The notes under the pieces are model-generated. The model worked only from the letters and a program-made list of their open reading frames with translations. It was not told the origin of the DNA and did not search any database. The translations under genes and the position numbers were made by a program. Below, one piece after another: positions 776-8,748 of a stretch of DNA of 8,748 nucleotides. The stretch's first letter is position 1; each line of letters opens with the position of its first letter. Origin of the DNA: a virus (Duplodnaviria; Heunggongvirae; Uroviricota; Caudoviricetes); IMG/VR virus record IMGVR_UViG_2541047780_000006; one strand, 5' to 3'.

Positions 776-912
776 AATTGACGCGCAATGCTGGGCGGGG
801 AGCGCACAGCCAAAAAAACCGAAATTGACCGCTAATTACTGCCAATCATCATCGCTCTGATTGAGCGTAAATCATTCAGGTTATTCAGTTCTTCCTTCTG
901 CTCTCGCTGACG

Positions 913-1083
913 TCAATAAATCCCATCATTGCGATCAACCTCATCCTTAACCATTGATGCGAGCAGTTCTTCCAGTTTCTGCGCTGACAGCTTTACCTGG
1001 TGATCTTCAGCATCTTCCCGGGCTATTGTGGTTCGCGCAGTGGCTGATTTTGCTGACATCACCACAGGGGGCAGACGGACCAT
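913..1083 (-). CDS. Hypothetical small acidic protein, 56 aa (MVRLPPVVMSAKSATARTTIAREDAEDHQVKLSAQKLEELLASMVKDEVDRNDGIY)
   Basis: ATG at rc 1081-1083 is preceded by GGAGG about 10 nt upstream (rc of 1091-1099); stop is rc of 913-915. The ORF track shows a 93-aa version starting at 1194, but that N-terminal extension runs through the degenerate hairpin of repeat copy A and has no RBS, so the shorter form is preferred. No recognisable family. Confidence 0.35.
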   Translation of the reverse strand: MVRLPPVVMSAKSATARTTIAREDAEDHQVKLSAQKLEELLASMVKDEVDRNDGIY

Positions 1084-1147
1084 TGAACCATGGCCTCCGG
1101 AACAAATAAGGGCAAAAATAACAACCACTATCGAAAGCTCACAAACT

Positions 1148-1363
1148 AACCGCAGCACGTTCCTGCATACGACGTATCTGCGGCATAATCCCAATGATTA
1201 CTCCCTGACAGGATTTGCAGGCCACTCAATATCAGGTGCAGTTGATGTATCAACACGATTCAACAATACCCGATATTTATTCCATGCCTCCAGCAACGAT
1301 CTTTCTTCCTCCGTTGCGATTTCCAGATCTACAGCATCCTGCAGTGGCGCAATATACTCACTG
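1148..1363. repeat. Direct repeat copy A (~216 bp): tfa 3-prime end plus a degenerate downstream hairpin
   Basis: Manual alignment of 1148-1363 with 2198-2412 gives about 87% identity, with one indel inside the hairpin. Flanking sequence is unrelated on both sides. The hairpin CCGCAGCACGT...ACGTATCTGCGG (1150-1183) is an imperfect version of the perfect palindrome in copy B. Confidence 0.85.
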
Positions 1364-1467
1364 AATTCCTGGATGTAGAACTGTGTGGTGACGGTCTTCC
1401 AGCCATTCGGCTCCTGCTGTATCGAAGCATACCAGGCTATTTCAATATCGCTATGCTGCGGCAGCAT
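1198..1467 (-). CDS. Short tail fibre assembly protein paralog, 89 aa (unique 36-aa N-terminus fused to the conserved Tfa C-terminal ~53 aa; tfaX-like)
   Basis: The C-terminal 53 aa ([53 protein letters not shown]) are near-identical to the C-terminus of the full Tfa at 2247-2831. The N-terminal 36 aa ([36 protein letters not shown]) are unrelated to Tfa. A good RBS, AAGGGG, sits 4 nt before the ATG (rc of 1472-1477). It could be a functional short chaperone or a recombination remnant. Confidence 0.6.
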
Positions 1468-1523
1468 TTAACCCCTTGTAATTCATCGCCATAATTGATT
1501 TAATTCACAAATAAAACTATAAC

Positions 1524-2192
1524 ATGGTGAAATCAATGAAAAAAAACACAGATGATGGGGCTAAAATTTACACACCACTTACCCTAAAGCTTTATGACTG
1601 GTGGGTTTTGGGAGTATCAAATCGGCTTGCATGGGGATGTCCTACAAAGGAACACCTTCTTCCACACTTTCTGGAACATGTAGGTAACAACCATCTGGAT
1701 ATTGGTGTTGGAACTGGGTTTTACCTTACTCACGTACCTGAGAGTAGTCTGATATCTTTAATGGATTTGAACGAAGCTAGCCTGAACGCGGCATCTACAA
1801 GGGCTGGGGAATCAAAAATTAAACATAAAATTAGCCATGATGTTTTTGAACCTTATCCCGCGGCGTTACATGGTCAATTTGATTCCATTTCCATGTTTTA
1901 CCTTCTTCACTGCCTGCCTGGAAATATATCTACAAAAAGCTGTGTAATACGCAATGCGGCGCAGGCCTTAACTGACGATGGAACTCTATACGGAGCCACA
2001 ATTCTTGGCGATGGAGTTGTGCACAATAGCTTCGGTCAAAAACTGATGCGCATTTACAATCAGAAAGGCATCTTTTCAAACACAAAAGATTCCGAAGAAG
2101 GCTTAACACATATACTCTCAGAGCATTTCGAGAATGTTAAAACCAAGGTTCAAGGTACTGTAGTAATGTTTTCCGCTTCAGGGAAAAAATAG
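1524..2192 (+). CDS. ybcY: Class I (Rossmann-fold) SAM-dependent methyltransferase, 222 aa; prophage cargo gene, YbcY-like
   Basis: Motif I HLDIGVGTGFY, an acidic residue at the end of beta-2 (LMDLNE), motif II FDSISMFYLLHCLP and motif III LTDDGTLYGATIL. No DPPY/NPPY or PCQ motif, so it is not a DNA methyltransferase. Visibly more AT-rich than the flanking phage genes and on the opposite strand. The symbol is assigned from my recollection that DLP12 of E. coli K-12 has the order tfaD-ybcY-tfaX, with ybcY a putative SAM methyltransferase; this was not verified by alignment. An alternative start at ATG 1536 (MKKNTDD...) has a GGTGA Shine-Dalgarno 5 nt upstream and may be the true start. Confidence 0.75.
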   Translation: MVKSMKKNTDDGAKIYTPLTLKLYDWWVLGVSNRLAWGCPTKEHLLPHFLEHVGNNHLDIGVGTGFYLTHVPESSLISLMDLNEASLNAASTRAGESKIKHKISHDVFEPYPAALHGQFDSISMFYLLHCLPGNISTKSCVIRNAAQALTDDGTLYGATILGDGVVHNSFGQKLMRIYNQKGIFSNTKDSEEGLTHILSEHFENVKTKVQGTVVMFSASGKK

Positions 2193-2197
2193 CATCC

Positions 2198-2412
2198 AAC
2201 CGCAGCACGTTCTTGCTTAAGACGTGCTGCGGCATAATCCCAATGATTACTCCCTGACAGGGTTCGTAGGCCACTCAATATCAGGTGCAGTTGATGTATC
2301 AACACGGTTCAGCAACACCCGATACTTTTTCCAGGCTTCCAGCAATGAGGTTTCTTCCTCCGTTGCAATTTCCAGATCTGCAGCATCCTGAAGCGGCGCA
2401 ATATGCTCACTG
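2198..2412. repeat. Direct repeat copy B (~215 bp): authentic tfa 3-prime end plus downstream hairpin
   Basis: Partner of 1148-1363 at about 87% identity. Covers the last ~55 codons of tfa and about 50 bp of 3-prime flank, including the perfect palindrome at 2200-2232. Confidence 0.85.
2200..2232 (-). terminator. Perfect 11-bp-stem palindromic hairpin between the convergent tfa and methyltransferase genes; probable terminator
   Basis: CCGCAGCACGT (2200-2210), loop TCTTGCTTAAG, ACGTGCTGCGG (2222-2232). On the minus strand it lies 15 nt after the tfa stop, with a T-run (rc of 2184-2189) about 10 nt after the stem. On the plus strand it lies 8 nt after the methyltransferase stop but has no T-run. 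Confidence 0.45.
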
Positions 2413-2831
2413 GCTACCTGCATCAGGTTGTTTTTTGTTTCTTCCGCCTCCCGGATCCGGAACAGTTTTTCTGCTTCCGTATCCTTCACCCAGGCTGTGC
2501 CGTTCCACTTCTGAAACTCCCCTTCCGGCGATAACCAGGTAACATTTTCCGGTAACGGACCGAGTTCAGAAATAAATAACTCGTCCCCTGACGCTACGTC
2601 ATAAACCGTTTTCCCCCGATGGTCTTCAACGAGATGCCACGATGCCTCATCACTGTTGAAAACAGCCACAAAGCCAGCAGGAATATCTGGTGGTGCAATA
2701 TCGGTACTGTTTGCTGGCAGACCTGTATGAGGCGGAATATATGCGTCACCTTCACCAATAAATTCATTAGTTCCGGCCAGCAGATTATAAATTTTTATGG
2801 TCCGTGCTTGTTCACTCATTCTGAATGCCAT
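2247..2831 (-). CDS. tfa: Tail fibre assembly protein Tfa, 194 aa
   Basis: Same length and near-identical sequence to phage lambda Tfa as I recall it ([53 protein letters not shown]...). The start ATG overlaps the stf stop in TAATG. GAGG Shine-Dalgarno lies 8 nt upstream. Confidence 0.95.
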
Positions 2832-5800
2832 TATGCAAGCCTCACAATATAGTTAAATGCGATGTTTTTGACGGTGTTTTCCGCGTTACCCGCAGCGTTA
2901 ACGGTGATGGTGTGTCCATGTGAACCAATCGCAACGGAGTGCGTATGCGCACCAATACCTACAGTATGTGCATGTGCGCCAGAACTTGCTGCAGTACCAG
3001 ACAGCGAGTGGGTATGAGCACCTGCTGACTGTGTCTGAATACGTTGATAATACGATCTATAGGAAGAAGTCTCCGGGCTTACTTGATACTGTGAATTCTG
3101 GACATAAGTGAACCCACCGCCATCATAAAATGCTAACGCAGAACCGCCGCCTCCTGGCCAACGAATACCATTACCATGAGTATGAACACCGGCAGACCCC
3201 GTAGAGCCACTCAGACTGTGCGTATGCGCCCCAGTGTTATTCGTGGATTTAGTGCCGTAATCAAACGACGATGTGGTTTTCGTCCCCAAATCCGTACTGG
3301 ATGCGCTGGCGCTGTGGGTGTGCGATTTTATGCCGTCCTGTTCCTGAGACAATACGGCCCGGCCACTGGCGGGTTTGCCCTTGATTGTCCAGCCGCGCAT
3401 ATCTGGAATAACACCTGAAGGATAGGCAATAGCCAGTTTCGGATATGCTGCCTTATCAAACGTCTGCCCCTGCATGATTGCATAACCTGCAGGTGGTGTA
3501 TCTGATGGCCACGGCAGCGGAACACCTGGCGGAAACGCTTCAATATTTGCCGAGCCGTCAAATTTTACGCCGTTAATTGTCCTTGCAGTTTGCAATTTGG
3601 TTGCTGTGCTTGCATTACCCGATAAAGATCCAGTGATACCACCACTCGCGTTTAATTTAGTTGCAATTGTAACATTGCCAGTATGGTTACTAATTATAAA
3701 CGGCCTTAAGCTATTGTGCGTACCAAGACTGTTACCCGAATCTGTCAACATAAAATATGTGTTTGATCCATCATTTCGGATAAAGAATCCATAGTTGCCA
3801 TAGGCAATACGCAGACCATTTGCTGACCTTGAAATAACCTCACCAGCAGCAGTTAAACCACCTGAAAGAGTCCCTCCAGTTAATGCCAATGCCCCAATAT
3901 TTGAAGGGGTCAATGTGATATTTGCACTACCATCAAATGACACACCGTTAATCGTTCTGGCTGCCTGAAGTTTCGTGGCGGTCGCAGCATTACCTGTAGT
4001 GTTTTGATTACCGGTAGCGTTGACTCCAGGCAAGTTGATATCTGCCGATCCATCAAATGCCACGCCCCCAATCTTACGTGCTGTCTTGATCTTGGTCGCA
4101 GTATCTGCGTTTCCGGTCAAATTACCAGTAACACTACCACCAACTTTTAGTCCATTACCGATGGACACCAACCCTGATCTTAAGTTTATAGAGAATGGTC
4201 TTAATGAACCGATGTCTCCATTTTCCCCCTCCCCTTCATTAGTCGGAATAAGATGAAGATGATCTTCGGAACGCCTAAAAATAAGGCCAAAGGCTTGGTT
4301 GAATATTCGAAGAGCATTTATCGTGCTGATTTTTAACTGCCCTCCCATTGTGTCGCCAGTTTTTTGAACTGAACTATCTTTAACAGTTTTAACTGCCTTT
4401 GGCGTTGCCGCCAGCTTTTCACTGGTGCTGTTTGTTGCACTGCTGAGCTGTACTATCCCCTTTTTCGTCGTGCTCGCATCCTCCAGCGCCACGGCGGATG
4501 CAATATCCTCTGCCCGTTTTGCTGCTGTCTCGGCGCGCGTTGCCGCGGATTCAGCAGCAACTTTGCTCTGAGATGCAGCCGTCGCACTGCCTGCCGCCTC
4601 TGATGCTTTCGTTGTTGCTGTCGTGGCACTACCTTTCGCTGCTGACGCTTGTCTGGTCGCCTCATCTTTTGAAGCAGACGCAGATGATGCCGATGACGCC
4701 GCTGAACTGGCTGACGATGCGGCTGCCGCCTTAGAGGAAGCAGCATTGTCTGCTGAAGTCTTTGCATTTGTTTCAGAGGTTTTTGCTGCAGAAGCAGACC
4801 TCGCTGCTGCAGTGGCTTGCTCAGTGGCTTTGCCAGCCTTCGTTGTGGCTGTTGAAGCGGATGATGCGGCGCTTTCTGCCGATTTTCCGGCGGCGGTGGC
4901 ACTGGCTGAGGCCTGCCCGGCACTTGTTGACGCGGCACTGGCAGATAATGCAGCCGCTGTTTTTGAACCTGCCGCAGCTGAGGCGCTCTGTCCCGCTGCT
5001 GTTTCAGAAGACTTAGCGTTCGTCTCGGACGTTTTTGCCGCCTTCGCGGAATTTCCTGCCGCCGTTGCCGAGGAAGCTGCACTACTGGCACTTGATGATG
5101 CATTCGTTTCTGAAGATTTCGCTGCCTCTTTTGAGGCCGCCGCACCCCGTGCCGAGGTGGCAGCTTCTGACGCCTTCGTGGTCGCTGTGGATGCAGAAGT
5201 GGCTGCCGATTTTTGTGATGCTGCGGCATTCGTTTCTGACGTTTTCGCGGCACTGGCGCTGGTAGCTGCCGCGCTTTTTGATGACTCTGCAGCAGCAGCA
5301 CTTTTTGCTGCTTCACGGGCCTTTGTCGATGCCGTTCCTGCGCTGGAAGACGCTGACTGAGCCGACGACGCGGCCTGTCCGGCTGACGTGCTGGCGGCAC
5401 GTGCTGAGGCTGCAGCATCGGTTGCATGAGTTGCCGCCTCGCTGGCTGATGCACTGGCATCGCTGGCTGATTTTTTCGCGGCTGCCGTATTCTGTGCAAC
5501 CGCGGAGGCGTTACGTGACACCTCTTCCACCATCTGCTCAAAGCGGCGCAGTGCCTCCGGTCGGACATCATCCTCCGTCATGGCACCGAGAAAATCATTC
5601 AGCGTACCTGGTCTGGAACCTTCATAGACGGTAATGGTCCCGGCATGTGAAGGCGGAAAATCTTCAACCAGCAGGGTGACGCTGTACTGGCCATACTCAA
5701 CATCCATGCTGTAACGCCCGGCTTCATCCGGATTTTCAGAGGCCACCGTGTTCACCACCACCGTGCTGCTGGTCCGTCTGGCCTTCAGCACAATGGTGCA

Positions 5801-5857
5801 GTTCTGTACTGGTTTTCCTGTGCCATCTTTAAGCACGCCAGAAATTTTTACTGTCAT
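2831..5857 (-). CDS. stf: Side tail fibre protein Stf, 1008 aa, mosaic
   Basis: The N-terminal ~115 aa ([22 protein letters not shown]...) and the C-terminal ~250 aa (PWPSD...[32 protein letters not shown]...GAHTHSLSG...[29 protein letters not shown]) match lambda Stf as recalled. In between are a long Ala/Ser/Thr-rich repeat region and three copies of the phage tail-fibre repeat (G-N-A-x-T-A-T-K-[IL]-x-x-A-R-x-I-x-G-V-x-F-D-G-S-A-[DN]-I). Confidence 0.93.
4420..5515. repeat. Intragenic degenerate tandem repeats (Ala/Ser/Thr-rich shaft of Stf; about 42-bp, 14-residue periodicity)
   Basis: The protein motif K(T/S)SETNA recurs at spacings of 42, 28 and 7 residues. The corresponding DNA motif GC(A)TTYGTTTCWGANGNTTTYGC recurs near 4764, 5016, 5101 and 5227. 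The region is nearly stop-free in several frames, which generates long shadow ORFs on both strands. Confidence 0.6.
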
Positions 5858-6008: not shown

Positions 6009-6608
6009 TCAGAAACGGTATCCGATACCAACAATAAATGCATCCGTTCGCCAGTCGCCACTGCCGGAGCCTTCATAAGCAATATCAATGGCCACGGATT
6101 CGGTCGGGTTAAACTGCACGCCAGCCCCCCACGCCAGAGACGTGTTGCTGTGGCGACCGTCATCACTTCCGGTCAGCACATCGTGCGTTTTCCCCTTGTT
6201 GTCAGTTACGCGGAGATAATCCCCGGAGAAAGTCGACACACGGCTGTAAGCCACACCCACCATCGCATACGCGCTGAACCATTCATTCACGCGTACAGAC
6301 GGCCCCGCCATCACGCTGAACCAGCGGTTACGCACGGAATCTTCATGCCAGCGGGTATCGCTGTAATGCGTTTTTTGCTCATCTTTGGCATTGGCATAAC
6401 TGAATGACGTCACCAGCCCCAGCGTGTCCGTAAACTCATAACGGTATTTCACGTTAATCCCGTTCAGATCATCGCTGCCAGGCATATCAGTATGGGTCTG
6501 AAGATACCCGGCGCTTAGTGTGGACTGATGCTCTGCTGCGCTCGCTGGCGTACCAGCGGCAACCAGCCAGACTACTGCGGACAGAATAACAGCACATAAT
6601 TTACGCAT
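6009..6608 (-). CDS. lom: Outer membrane protein Lom (Ail/Lom/OmpX/PagC family 8-strand beta-barrel), 199 aa
   Basis: Signal peptide MRKLCAVILSAVVWLVAAGTPASA. The C-terminus IAYEGSGSGDWRTDAFIVGIGYRF matches lambda Lom. GAGAGG Shine-Dalgarno lies 6 nt upstream. Position between J and stf is as in lambda. Confidence 0.95.
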   Translation of the reverse strand: MRKLCAVILSAVVWLVAAGTPASAAEHQSTLSAGYLQTHTDMPGSDDLNGINVKYRYEFTDTLGLVTSFSYANAKDEQKTHYSDTRWHEDSVRNRWFSVMAGPSVRVNEWFSAYAMVGVAYSRVSTFSGDYLRVTDNKGKTHDVLTGSDDGRHSNTSLAWGAGVQFNPTESVAIDIAYEGSGSGDWRTDAFIVGIGYRF

Positions 6609-6675: not shown

Positions 6676-8748
6676 TCAGCTAATCGTGATGCCTGCAGTG
6701 GCTTTCTTCATCACAACAACCAGCAAATCGCTGATACTTGCTGTGGGATACCAGCCATTTACCCACCATGCTGATACAGAAAACTCCAGCGTCATGTGAC
6801 CGCGACCAGCAGGCATATCAATAACACCACTGTAAACCAGCGTATTATCCAGCGCGGTACGGTTATAAATTTCAGCACCGTTTTTCTTCACTATCAGGCG
6901 GCATGACGAATAAGTATCGCTGTTCTCCCGCTCATGTCTGGCACCGCTGAAAGCCACCGCCGGAATAACAATCTGCCGGTTAAACGGCTGATCGTCATAA
7001 ACCCTGACGGTAATGGTTCCTGATGGCCAACGCTTCGGTGCACGGGAGTCACGAGGGAAAGCCTTACCCACTGTTTTAACGAGATCGCCTTCAATCTGGT
7101 TTGCAGACAGTTTCCCTCTGATGACACAGTTCTCGTTAATGGTGACATTATTGAGCGTGCCGGTATTCGCCGTGATGGCTCCACTGATATCCGCATTGCG
7201 GGCTGTCAGCCTGCCATCCGGCGTCAGGGAAAACGTCGGAGGATTGCCGGATGACGTGATGCTCACCGCAAACAGTCGCTTCAGGAACACGTCGTTCATG
7301 AACAGCTGATTCCCCTGCGCCACAAACAGCGGCGTGGTGTTGCCGTTCTCCGGGGTAATCATCGCAATGCGATCGGCCTGCAGCAGAATGTTACTCAGGG
7401 TCTGACCATCAACATCCTCAATCCCCGCGCCAATCCCGGCCACATAGGGAATACCGTTTTTTGTTTTCTGCACCTTCAGCATATACATGGCATTCAGCTC
7501 ATTGCGCGTGTCTGACTGAACCCGCTGGATTTGCTGTATGGTCACGGCCTGGTCACCCAGCTTTTTATCCGTGGTCGAGGTAATTTCACTCCCTTTTTTA
7601 TCCACGTACTGGCGGACCTGTGCTATCTGCCGGGCGTTTTCTGACTGCCCCTGGCTGACAGTCTGTGAGATTTCACTGCTCACCCGGTCCACTTTCTGGC
7701 TCATCTGCGCGATGGCCAGTGTCTGGTCCTCATTCTTTTTCGCAACCAGCTGCGTGAGGCTGTTTTCCGCCTCCCCGATTTTCCGGGTCACTTCTGCGAT
7801 ATCCGTGTCCATCCGCTGACGGATGTCTTCTTCCAGTTGCGTGACCTCCGTACGCAGCGCTGAAGCATCAATGCGCTCTTTCAGTGCCTGACCCAGAAGC
7901 GTCTCATCTATCAGCCCCCGGAAAATTTCCAGATACCCTTCACCATCATTGCTGGGCTGCCCGCTGGCTTCCACAAAAGCAGATTTTCCCACCAGGTTGA
8001 CGCTTCGCACGTAAAACCAGAAATCCGTCCCCGGCTTAATCCGGCTCCCCTGGACAGTCCACTGACTGCCGGACCCCAGATAACGGGCAGATTTTTCCAC
8101 CTGTGCCGTGTTCGTGATGCGTTTTTCTGAGAACCAGAATTCAAACTGTATCGTCGGATCATACACCGCAAGACGCGGGACCGCCGTTATCTGAAAATAC
8201 CCCGGCGTCAGCTCAATGGTGGCGGGTTTTGCAGGTGCGTTAATCCGGAAGGTGGTGGTGGCAGGTTCACCCTGCTGGCCATAACTGTTTATCGCCCGCA
8301 CCGTCAGGGTGTATTCCCCCAGTGGCAGGCCACTGAAACGGTGCTCCGTGTCTGCGGTGATGGCGGTGGTCACCAGTCTGGCATCCGTTCCCTTACCACT
8401 GGTCAGGCGCAGACTGAAGCGCACGCCCTTCACCACCCGCGGCGTGTCCCATTTAGCCTGCGCCAGATACTGGCCGTCAGCTGCGCTCACCTCCACCGTC
8501 AGGTGCTGTACTGCCGGTGGGATGACGCTGTTCAGGGAGCCTGACTGCGGCTCAAAGCGGGCACCGTTATCCACGATGGCTTCTTTTTCCGGTACGTGCT
8601 GCACCGCCGTGATGGCAAAGGTGCCGTCCGTGTTTTCCCGGACGGAGACACAGCGGAACAGGCGACGGCGCAGTGACGGCAGGGAGAGTCCCCACACCCC
8701 GTATGTCTCCACACCATCCGGCAGGGTGCTGACCTGTATCCGGTCCGG
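6676..8748 (-). CDS. J: Tail tip host-specificity protein J (central tail fibre), C-terminal ~690 codons; 5-prime end lies beyond the window
   Basis: The reading frame stays open from the window edge at 8748 (in frame, no stop) down to the TGA at 6676-6678. The GTG start at 8710-8712 reported by the ORF finder is therefore internal. Large protein directly upstream of lom, as in lambda. The C-terminal region is the receptor-binding part in lambda J. Confidence 0.9.

Follow-up and report, generated by a model that had tools for sequence, protein, structure and literature searches.

The stretch of DNA analysed here (8,748 nucleotides, hereafter the window) carries a predicted methyltransferase gene inside a tail-fibre module, lying between a full-length and a truncated copy of the tail-fibre-assembly gene tfa and bracketed by two direct repeats. 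The features at the locus are as follows:

832 to 1101, minus strand: decayed DUF4376 tail-fibre-related pseudogene remnant (PGAP annotation of a 100%-identical stretch in NZ_CP032515, coordinates mapped)
1148 to 1365: left direct-repeat copy, made of a hairpin and the final 55 codons of truncated tfa'; chimeric
1150 to 1183, minus strand: left hairpin, degenerate version of the terminator of tfa (-22.1 kcal/mol, z -2.6)
1198 to 1467, minus strand: tfa', truncated paralogue of the tail-fibre-assembly gene, 89 aa, counterpart of DLP12 TfaX (phrog_2341, 4.7e-60)
1468 to 1535, plus strand: divergent AT-rich spacer with candidate promoters (27% GC over 1468-1523)
1468-1473 and 1490-1495, plus strand: alternative candidate promoter TTAACC / CATAAT, from a scan
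1495-1500 and 1518-1523, plus strand: candidate promoter TTGATT-17-TATAAC, read from the sequence
1536 to 2192, plus strand: predicted class I SAM-dependent methyltransferase, 218 aa, intact YbcY orthologue (phrog_2132)
2198 to 2414: right direct-repeat copy, made of a hairpin and the final 55 codons of functional tfa
2200 to 2232: right hairpin with an 11-bp stem, common to the convergent methyltransferase and tfa transcripts
2247 to 2831, minus strand: tfa, full-length tail-fibre-assembly gene, 194 aa (Caudo_TAP, 1.9e-44; phrog_105, 4e-100)
2831 to 5857, minus strand: stf, side tail fibre gene, 1008 aa (context)

An earlier note on this DNA, made from the letters alone, had described an authentic tfa and a short Tfa paralogue on either side of the methyltransferase gene, and both identifications hold. 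The 194-aa product of tfa matches Caudo_TAP, and the 89-aa product of tfa' is a C-terminal fragment that aligns to profile positions 75-130 only. This fragment, which can be aligned to K-12 tfaX, is labelled an incomplete pseudogene in genomes identical at this locus and is probably a non-functional remnant. To its left, the DUF4376 remnant flanks the cassette in prophages that occupy the ompW site, and an ORF at 913-1194 matches phrog_1141 (tail fiber) and phrog_7703.

The methyltransferase ORF had been placed at 1524-2192, and the protein as annotated from 1524 (222 aa) is WP_000240999. The frame and its assignment to the SAM methyltransferases stand, but not its start: the ATG at 1536, already favoured by the promoter argument of the same note, is the likely one, since the 1524 ATG reads ACG in strain Nissle, where the gene is annotated at 218 aa, and a length of about 218 aa (217-230) predominates among homologues from other genera and in the PHROG model. 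The gene has a GC content of 0.411 and a GC3 of 0.36. The corresponding values are 0.48/0.45 for tfa, 0.52/0.43 for stf, 0.54/0.58 for lom and 0.56/0.64 for J, so its composition indeed differs from that of the flanking phage genes (GC 0.48-0.56, GC3 0.43-0.64), with the greater AT-richness relative to stf, tfa and J that had been claimed in the earlier note. It is also the only large gene on the opposite strand as far as the tail module is concerned; outside the module, dinI (1-249) is on the plus strand too.

The product is a predicted class I (Rossmann-like) SAM-dependent methyltransferase. The ORF at 1524-2192 scored above the Pfam cut-offs for Methyltransf_12 (37.5 bits; cut-off 30), Methyltransf_23 (29; 27), Methyltransf_25 (27.7; 27) and Methyltransf_11 (24.6; 21.2), with no result speaking against a SAM-binding fold. 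Motif I, HLDIGVGTG, together with LMDLN, is invariant or nearly so in 30 homologues, the motif residues being D55, G57, G59, T60, G61 and D77 (218-aa numbering). The 30-sequence family alignment, with homologues down to 56% identity, has 59 invariant columns, and its conserved stretches comprise DIGVGTG, an acidic residue after strand 2, HD and YLLHCLPG (invariant Y.LHCL.G). The AlphaFold model (pLDDT 90.7) displays the seven-stranded alpha/beta fold of class I SAM methyltransferases.

Concerning the substrate, the predicted model is similar to methyltransferases of small molecules and lipids but matches none of them specifically. The top Foldseek matches were bacterial PmtA, JHAMT, phosphoethanolamine methyltransferase, SgvM and CurJ, the best being PmtA (PDB 8YS9; E 3.6e-12, TM 0.63-0.67; similar in size at about 210 aa), which a profile search of PDB sequences retrieved at E 0.056. 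In PmtA and the phosphoethanolamine N-methyltransferases, as in the YbcY-type protein, the Rossmann-like core is overlaid by an N-terminal helix; in the YbcY-type protein, this helix is Trp-rich (LYDWWVL...AW). Sequence searches against solved structures gave weak matches to JHAMT and UbiG (E 1e-3 to 6e-6) and no specific assignment, and the NCBIfam matches to CpaM, RquA and PmtA all fell below threshold, the PmtA equivalog NF045882 scoring 15.7 bits against a cut-off of 390. The earlier remark that DNA-methyltransferase motifs are missing was confirmed by a regular-expression search of the protein, which found neither the motif IV pattern (D/N/S)PP(Y/F/W) nor PCQ, only a lone ENV at 203 with no PC partner; the ORF had no Pfam match among DNA-methylase families either. 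The enzyme would be cytoplasmic or membrane-peripheral, with a small molecule or lipid rather than DNA as its substrate.

The two direct repeats are also real and close to the proposed 87% identity. Global alignment of 1148-1365 with 2198-2414 gave 193 identical columns out of 218 (88.5%) with a single 1-nt indel near 1176-1177, and a repeat search returned the same sequences as two pairs with a one-base offset, 1178-1374 / 2227-2423 and 1148-1175 / 2198-2225 (89% each), a similarity far above that expected by chance for 8.7 kb. Each copy consists of the last 55 codons of a tfa-type gene plus a hairpin, with minus-strand stops at 1198-1200 (left) and 2247-2249 (right), each preceded by exactly 55 codons. 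The left hairpin contains a terminator-like site on the minus strand (1167-1151, from a scan). The right one folds at -23.9 kcal/mol on the plus strand and -28.5 kcal/mol on the minus strand (z -5.6 and -4.3), and was kept in every context examined (ev243, Kati, Nissle and K-12). The left copy is a composite: from 1148 to about 1219 it matches the resident-prophage tfa end found at empty sites (see below), and from about 1220 on the cassette-borne tfa' of all other contexts. Most differences between the two repeats in their coding parts are synonymous (dS 0.43, dN 0.06, dN/dS 0.14), which suggests that they are two diverged tfa alleles joined by recombination. An in-situ duplication was ruled out as their origin by this divergence and by the resident allele in the outer left copy.

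The segment between the repeats is widespread. At an identity of at least 95%, it was found in 3844 of 5426 complete E. coli genomes (71%), in 4893 places and with up to 4 copies per genome; it is also carried by 14 sequenced Escherichia phages, and the identical 222-aa protein forms a cluster with 6589 members. At least six outer contexts were distinguished (the ompW site, the potB site, DLP12, the Nissle minimal remnant, ev243/W4 and Kati). The same core of 1 kb, in most cases almost identical, recurs behind various tail-fibre modules and at various chromosomal sites. In strain Nissle, the intact gene sits beside ompT in a minimal DLP12 remnant. Homologues at 68-90% identity lie amid prophage-type cargo such as dinI, sodC, sopA and perC, and in Salmonella, Enterobacter and Yersinia, homologues at 56-65% identity stand alone on the chromosome. 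No conserved partner gene was found in the homologue neighbourhoods of Salmonella, Enterobacter, Yersinia and Citrobacter, which therefore provide no guilt-by-association clue to function.

The repeat-bounded presence/absence polymorphism expected of a mobile cassette was detected. With a 518-nt query able to tell empty from filled sites, 20 complete genomes were found to have exact empty sites, where one hybrid copy of the repeat is all that lies between tfa and the same left flank, against 1128 records filled on the same flanks. In the three empty sites read base by base, the switch from left-like to right-like sequence occurs at a different point in each. Across E. coli genomes, the left homology ends at window position 1126, 1148, 1220, 1243 or 1438, and the right homology at 2219, 2232-2238, 2341-2344, 2367, 2375-2378 or 2412; these are BLAST alignment ends, and hence approximate recombination junctions only. 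Nearly all of them cluster inside the two repeats, most right-hand ones within 2198-2414. The conserved mobile core, at about 1243-2232, is approximately 1 kb long and ends on the right with the hairpin; it is thus shorter than the inter-repeat unit plus the repeats. In the left repeat, the outermost 72 nt (hairpin and last codons) are part of the resident prophage allele and lie outside the cassette. This refines the claim that the cassette is exactly bounded by the repeats: they do bracket it, but the conserved unit stops short of their outer limits. Gain and loss by homologous recombination at the tfa end, as put forward in the earlier note, fits the polymorphism and the clustering of breakpoints, the mechanism itself being deduced from comparative patterns. 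The empty sites could be ancestral states instead of deletions, and their left-like/right-like mosaics fit either direction.

Taken together, these data point, with a probability of roughly three in four, to a phage cargo gene (moron) that lies amid the debris of tail-fibre-assembly genes, has been moved through about 215 bp of tfa homology, has its own promoter and encodes a methyltransferase that does not act on DNA. The conserved core would comprise the 5'-truncated tfa', a 56-nt AT-rich spacer with a sigma-70 promoter, the 218-aa methyltransferase and the shared hairpin. Its left end would be tfa 3' sequence and its right end would usually adjoin the 3' end of a tfa gene, so that about 215 bp of direct homology would bracket it downstream of lambdoid stf-tfa pairs. 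This homology would enable host RecA or phage recombinases either to delete the cassette precisely or to transfer it to other lambdoid prophages, in which case one crossover would fall in the tfa end and the second at any point of the tail genes. Recombination of this kind may have brought the two diverged tfa alleles together.

The strongest competitor, although rather unlikely, is that the arrangement is a passive relic: tfa' would have been left from an older tail-fibre module displaced when an stf-tfa-methyltransferase block recombined in, and the repeats would play no continuing role in gain or loss. The sequence left of the cassette, a graveyard of tail-fibre fragments with the DUF4376 pseudogene and the truncated tfa', is compatible with this, as are the allelic divergence of the repeats and the preponderance of filled over empty sites (1128 to 20). 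However, a relic does not readily explain exact empty sites with at least three left-to-right switch points, breakpoints of many lineages falling within the repeats on both sides, or a usually near-identical 1-kb core behind different tail-fibre modules at different chromosomal sites.

Two further explanations appear far less probable. One of them considers the functional element to be an RNA, the repeat copies encoding the Rfam candidate sRNA IS009 (RF02111) and the methyltransferase being incidental. The model does match at 2290-2488 on the minus strand with 225.2 bits, above the gathering score of 117, and at 1241-1444 on the minus strand with 112.5 bits, just under it; but in both cases the matched sequence is tfa-type coding sequence in sense orientation, the copies diverge as a protein under purifying selection does (dN/dS 0.14), and the methyltransferase family is strongly conserved across genera, which makes this explanation very doubtful. 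Equally hard to sustain is that the methyltransferase gene is a functionless, decaying pseudogene, as in K-12, where ybcY has a 2-nt deletion at its start. The spacer is bound by H-NS (PMC3946193), and knockout of the already broken K-12 gene gave no phenotype in one assay (PMC2408971). Against decay, the ORF is intact in the window and beside ompT in the Nissle remnant, the cluster of its protein is large (6589 sequences), the segment recurs at high identity in thousands of places, and 59 columns are invariant down to 56% identity. Finally, a DNA or anti-restriction methylase shielding phage DNA is disfavoured to the point of being hardly credible. In its favour, orphan DNA methyltransferases are common in phages, and the gene has one weak PADLOC match, to mad2 (E 0.0096, 12.8 bits). 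That match is not significant and PADLOC gave nothing for the small ORFs, so that the search placed the locus in no known anti-phage defence system.

Under the cargo-gene reading, the methyltransferase would be transcribed from its own promoter and not via the late operon. Genomic SELEX detected in vitro binding sites for the RpoD holoenzyme and H-NS in the K-12 ybcY/tfaX spacer, and the promoter predicted in the RNA-polymerase-holoenzyme site (PMC3946193) is exactly the TTGATT-17-TATAAC that had been picked out from the window sequence. With this -10 element at 1518-1523, the leader to the ATG at 1536 is only about 6 nt long, which favours either the alternative promoter at 1468-1495, with which a GGTGA Shine-Dalgarno-like site at 1526-1530 goes, or a near-leaderless mRNA. 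A strong hairpin follows the methyltransferase stop, without a U-run on the plus strand. H-NS probably keeps expression down and, given its binding, the gene may be silent under laboratory conditions. In the literature on ybcY and tail-fibre-assembly methyltransferase morons, no functional study of the gene was found.

The gene would benefit the lysogen, not the virion. Going beyond this, it is conceivable, albeit improbable, that the enzyme serves lysogenic conversion by methylating an envelope lipid or small metabolite, perhaps in a PmtA-like manner with its helix at the membrane, thereby changing phage susceptibility, antimicrobial-peptide resistance or gut fitness, the tfa repeats making it a portable homology cassette between co-resident lambdoid prophages. 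If true, lysogenic conversion would account for the intact copies beside ompT in minimal remnants and for the presence of the segment in 71% of E. coli genomes. Whatever its role, few prophage cargo genes are as widespread in E. coli as this one. Pathogens and the probiotic Nissle have intact copies but K-12 a broken one, which may be why a function has never been assigned. The locus offers a countable example of conserved tfa ends as recombination anchors for the exchange of prophage cargo and, in practical terms, intact YbcY is a well-defined target for a substrate screen.

The closest known system is tfaD-ybcY-tfaX (b0561-b0563) in DLP12 of K-12, where the same three elements follow one another in matching order and orientation. 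A three-way alignment with MG1655 (581.9-583.4 kb) and its annotated features found the aligned stretch near-identical through tfa', the spacer, the methyltransferase, the hairpin and the tfa 3' end, which bears out the likeness drawn in the earlier note. The two loci differ in that K-12 ybcY has lost 2 nt at its start (ATGAAAAAAAAC -> ATAAAAAAAC) and is a pseudogene, whereas the gene is intact in the window; in that tfaD is fused to a terminase fragment; and in their left flanks, appY in DLP12 and the DUF4376 remnant in the window. The left homology with K-12 begins at about window position 1220, so the left repeat there has no hairpin. From these sequence comparisons, the locus can be regarded as the intact counterpart of the DLP12 arrangement, which is already annotated and common in E. 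coli; as its proposed mechanism is standard lambdoid mosaicism, it will not surprise phage genomicists.

Morons were reportedly defined by Hendrix and colleagues in lambdoid phages, with lom and bor of lambda as examples. Like them, the methyltransferase gene is an addition that separates two genes adjoining each other in relatives, and its base composition is deviant; it also has candidate promoter and terminator sequences and probably no role in the virion. What sets it apart is the direct homology of about 215 bp on either side, derived from a neighbouring structural gene, which would provide a homologous route of gain and loss besides illegitimate insertion. Duplicated tfa-type sequence beside a tail-fibre gene is also a property of the invertible segments of Mu (G), P1 (C) and e14 (P), acted on by Gin, Cin and Pin. 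No invertase ORF was found within the 8,748-nt window. In phage Kati, the same methyltransferase core adjoins a DNA invertase and tail-fibre genes. An invertible segment was ruled out for the window by the direct orientation of its repeats, and in contrast to such segments the expected outcome here would be deletion or insertion of the cassette rather than a switch of fibre specificity.

The methyltransferase gene borders the terminal part of a lambdoid tail module, made up on the minus strand, reading leftwards, of J, lom, stf and tfa. The genes recognized, with the evidence for each, are the following.

6676-8712, minus strand: J, C-terminal two thirds (ORF calling, Pfam, annotation of identical sequence)
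6009-6608, minus strand: lom (ORF calling, Pfam, annotation of identical sequence)
2831-5857, minus strand: stf, side tail fibre, 1008 aa (ORF calling, Pfam, annotation of identical sequence)
2247-2831, minus strand: tfa, tail-fibre-assembly, 194 aa (ORF calling, Pfam, annotation of identical sequence)
1524-2192, plus strand: methyltransferase ORF (ORF calling, Pfam)
1198-1467, minus strand: tfa', truncated tfa paralogue, 89 aa (Caudo_TAP match confined to the C-terminal 56 residues)
about 832-1101, minus strand: decayed DUF4376 tail-fibre-related pseudogene

The region 1000-2900 has 100%-identical annotated counterparts in many E. coli chromosomes, where it is labelled as class I SAM-dependent methyltransferase, tail fiber assembly protein (full and partial) and DUF4376 pseudogene. 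The centre of stf (about 4450-5500) is Ala/Ser/Thr-rich and of low complexity (GC 0.55-0.62), contains six copies of a 33-nt imperfect repeat family, D2, and gives rise to long spurious ORFs in other frames (372 and 245 aa). A 45-aa ORF (2137-2274, minus strand), which runs across the 3' end of the methyltransferase gene, the hairpin and the stop codon of tfa, is listed in many RefSeq genomes as hypothetical protein WP_001309429.1; a family search gave no hit for this ORF, and it is probably an annotation artefact.

The direct repeats described in the earlier note, which was made from the sequence alone, are real. A repeat search of the window returned the pairs 1178-1374/2227-2423 and 1148-1175/2198-2225, each with 89% identity and offset by one base, and in a global alignment of the left repeat (1148-1365) with the right repeat (2198-2414) 193 of 218 columns were identical, with a single 1-base indel. 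In each copy a tfa-type frame is represented by exactly its 55 final codons and the stop, with the hairpin downstream. The stem of the right hairpin (2200-2232) is 11 bp long, with folding energies of -28.5 kcal/mol (z -4.3) on the tfa strand and -23.9 kcal/mol (z -5.6) on the methyltransferase strand; the left hairpin is degraded (-22.1 kcal/mol, z -2.6). The coding parts of the repeats differ by 12.5 synonymous and 7.5 non-synonymous changes (dS 0.43, dN 0.06, dN/dS 0.14). By this low dN/dS, the two copies had diverged as functioning tfa genes before they were joined, and did not arise by a recent local duplication. Moreover, the left repeat is chimeric: from 1148 to about 1219 it corresponds to the resident allele of the empty sites described below, with its hairpin and flank, and beyond about 1220 there is no difference from the tfa' that the cassette carries in unrelated contexts.

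Several further signals were detected around the repeats. The candidate sRNA family IS009 (Rfam RF02111, gathering score 117) matched the right copy (2290-2488, minus strand, 225 bits) and, slightly under the gathering score, the left copy (1241-1444, minus strand, 112.5 bits). Both matches fall within tfa-type coding sequence on the coding strand, and what the family describes is probably the conserved 3' half of tfa genes, not a separate RNA. Rfam also gave a weak match, below threshold, to the chromosome-encoded Shigella sRNA CssrB (2201-2263, minus strand, 32.6 bits versus a gathering score of 76), which spans the shared hairpin and the tfa stop region. In addition, one copy of a 30-nt direct repeat with 80% identity (294-323/1126-1155, CACTATCGAAAG...AACC.GCAG) immediately precedes the hairpin that follows dinI, and the other copy immediately precedes that of tfa' on the left. 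The second copy starts at position 1126, a recurrent left homology boundary in other genomes, and the repeat may represent a small module common to gene ends in the cargo regions of prophages.

The predicted product of recombination between the repeats was used as query, in the form of a 518-nt probe to which a filled site (both repeats with the methyltransferase between them) cannot give a full match. Twenty complete genomes matched this probe end to end in one piece, with 95-99% identity, and in all of them the DUF4376 remnant directly follows tfa. The filled arrangement on matching flanks was found in 1128 records, so that the repeat-bounded presence/absence to be looked for in related prophages does exist. 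Three of the empty sites share the ompW-adjacent prophage position with filled ones. In the three empty sites compared base by base, the single repeat copy resembles the left repeat at its outer end and the right repeat at its inner end; the switch lies between 1177 and 1215 in strain EFF60, and between 1222 and 1259 in the remaining two sites, where different short left-like patches occur as well. Such differing switch points would be the expected trace of independent crossovers or conversion tracts, and are compatible with the empty site being either a deletion product or the ancestral state. Cassette entry would involve one crossover in the last 20-40 codons of a resident tfa, which the chimeric left repeat fits, and a second one further right, in the tail genes. 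Altogether, the earlier interpretation of a methyltransferase cassette exchanged by homologous recombination was supported by each of the tests proposed for it, namely Pfam search, composition and repeat-bounded polymorphism.

The core conserved across genomes is shorter than the repeat-bounded unit. Homology starts on the left at about 1220 in K-12, phage Kati and a potB-site prophage, at about 1243 in phage ev243 and O157-type genomes, and at 1438 in the Nissle lineage. On the right, it ends just past the hairpin (2232-2246) in Kati and O157-type genomes, at about 2329-2378 in ev243-like contexts and at 2412 in other genomes, and extends further into tfa in the remaining ones. Among 60 records evenly spaced over the whole E. 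coli ranking, left ends were found at 1126, 1148, 1220/1221, 1243 and 1438, and right ends at 2219, 2232-2238, 2341-2344, 2367, 2375-2378, 2412, and 2685 or beyond. In this survey, almost every right end that falls short of full length is within the right repeat, and three of the five left-end classes are inside the left repeat or at its edge. A single core occurs in at least six outer contexts.

ompW-site prophage: DUF4376 remnant as flank
potB-site prophage: host boundary almost immediately after
DLP12: adjoins appY
Nissle minimal DLP12 remnant: ompT, methyltransferase, tfaD fragment, int fragment, tRNA-Arg
ev243 and strain W4: ompT, alpha/beta hydrolase, tfa', methyltransferase, 120-nt tfa fragment, different tail-fibre module
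Kati: adjoins invertase-associated tail-fibre region

The left end of the window has a different affiliation. Positions 1-605, with a DinI-like gene (1-249) and a 288-nt gene cut off at the joint, match, with 100% identity, the terminal part of another lambdoid prophage beside yecD, and the ompW-site prophage match runs from 603 on, starting exactly at the prophage/ompW-remnant boundary. The sequence shared at the joint (near 603-605) is GTA only, and a search for this joint in 5426 complete E. coli genomes gave 0 matches; it could represent a secondary-site insertion, a prophage-prophage rearrangement or an assembly chimera.

The inter-repeat segment (1366-2197) is present in 3844 of the 5426 complete E. 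coli genomes (71%), at 4893 places, with up to 4 per genome and all with at least 95% identity. The methyltransferase protein was also found in 15 phage-collection records (14 full length), all from Escherichia phages (ev243, 2G7b, Kati, Turner and the PhiR series), of which at least ev243 and Kati are lambda-like. The methyltransferase (phrog_2132) and tfa' (phrog_2341) both fall in the PHROG category unknown function.

Four Pfam models scored above cut-off for the ORF, in agreement with the class I SAM-dependent methyltransferase call of the earlier note, and its claimed AT-richness was borne out by GC 0.411 and GC3 0.36, against GC/GC3 values of 0.48/0.45 in tfa, 0.52/0.43 in stf, 0.54/0.58 in lom and 0.56/0.64 in J. 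The start is almost certainly ATG 1536, also preferred in the earlier note, rather than 1524, since lengths of about 218 aa (217-230) predominate among homologues in other genera and in the PHROG model, and ATG 1524 is ACG in strain Nissle, whose gene is annotated as 218 aa. Alignment of 30 homologues, down to 56% identity, revealed 59 invariant columns, among them those of the SAM-binding elements and of a distinctive YDWWVL...N..AW.C.T segment at the N-terminus. The AlphaFold2 model has high confidence (pLDDT 90.7, pTM 0.88), and its best Foldseek match in the PDB is bacterial phosphatidylethanolamine N-methyltransferase 8YS9, with juvenile-hormone acid methyltransferase, phosphoethanolamine methyltransferases, SgvM and CurJ among the other top matches. 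A motif search found no DNA-methyltransferase motifs, as anticipated, and neither defence-system models nor NCBIfam at equivalog level gave a match. Homologues with 56-65% identity stand by themselves as single genes in ordinary parts of the chromosome (Salmonella, Enterobacter, Yersinia), and those with 68-90% identity (C. braakii, C. freundii, Salmonella) lie amid prophage cargo, adjoining dinI, sodC, sopA, perC and a CdiI-like immunity gene. The latter are devoid of tfa flanks, so the tfa-repeat association appears specific to the E. coli lambdoid lineage. No conserved partner gene was found among the homologue neighbourhoods. These data support the limited statement that the gene encodes a self-contained small-molecule-type or lipid-type methyltransferase.

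The spacer between tfa' and the methyltransferase (1468-1523, 56 nt) has 27% GC and contains the candidate promoter read in the earlier note, TTGATT (1495-1500), 17 nt, TATAAC (1518-1523). Genomic SELEX located an RpoD-holoenzyme site in the divergent ybcY/tfaX spacer of K-12, where the predicted ybcY promoter is exactly TTGATT-17-TATAAC and an H-NS binding site is also flagged (Shimada et al., 2014; PMC3946193); this support consists of in-vitro binding and pattern matching, so the promoter is a predicted one and not a mapped start. A consensus scan gave an alternative candidate (TTAACC 1468/CATAAT 1490-1495), which would leave room for GGTGA (1526-1530) as a candidate ribosome-binding site for ATG 1536. 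AT-richness and H-NS binding agree in being consistent with a horizontally acquired, silenced cargo gene.

The parallel with tfaD-ybcY-tfaX of DLP12, described in the earlier note as decayed in K-12, was confirmed by alignment with MG1655, which is nearly identical through tfa', spacer, methyltransferase, hairpin and tfa 3' end. A 2-nt deletion in K-12 removes ATG 1536, and the frame from the upstream ATG runs into an early stop. Judged by this alignment, K-12 has the orthologous, already named locus with ybcY as a pseudogene, and the window has it in intact form. An A8 run (1539-1546) makes up methyltransferase codons two to four (ATGAAAAAAAAC), and the K-12 lesion (GA lost) abuts its 5' end. 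In Nissle, the methyltransferase is intact (NZ_CP148105, 3586768-3587424, 218 aa) although the DLP12 remnant is minimal, whereas in K-12 DLP12 is much larger and yet ybcY is broken; this contrast may hint at selection for the methyltransferase, or at linkage to ompT. Being so widespread, and intact beside ompT even in minimal prophage remnants, YbcY is worth a substrate screen.

What is new here is quantitative and will be unsurprising to a specialist: the prevalence, the exact empty sites, the clustering of breakpoints in the repeats and the nature of these repeats as diverged alleles. The locus falls into PHROG families already defined and resembles a textbook moron in its behaviour; compared with the latter, the cassette additionally has homologous flanks, derived from the neighbouring tfa.
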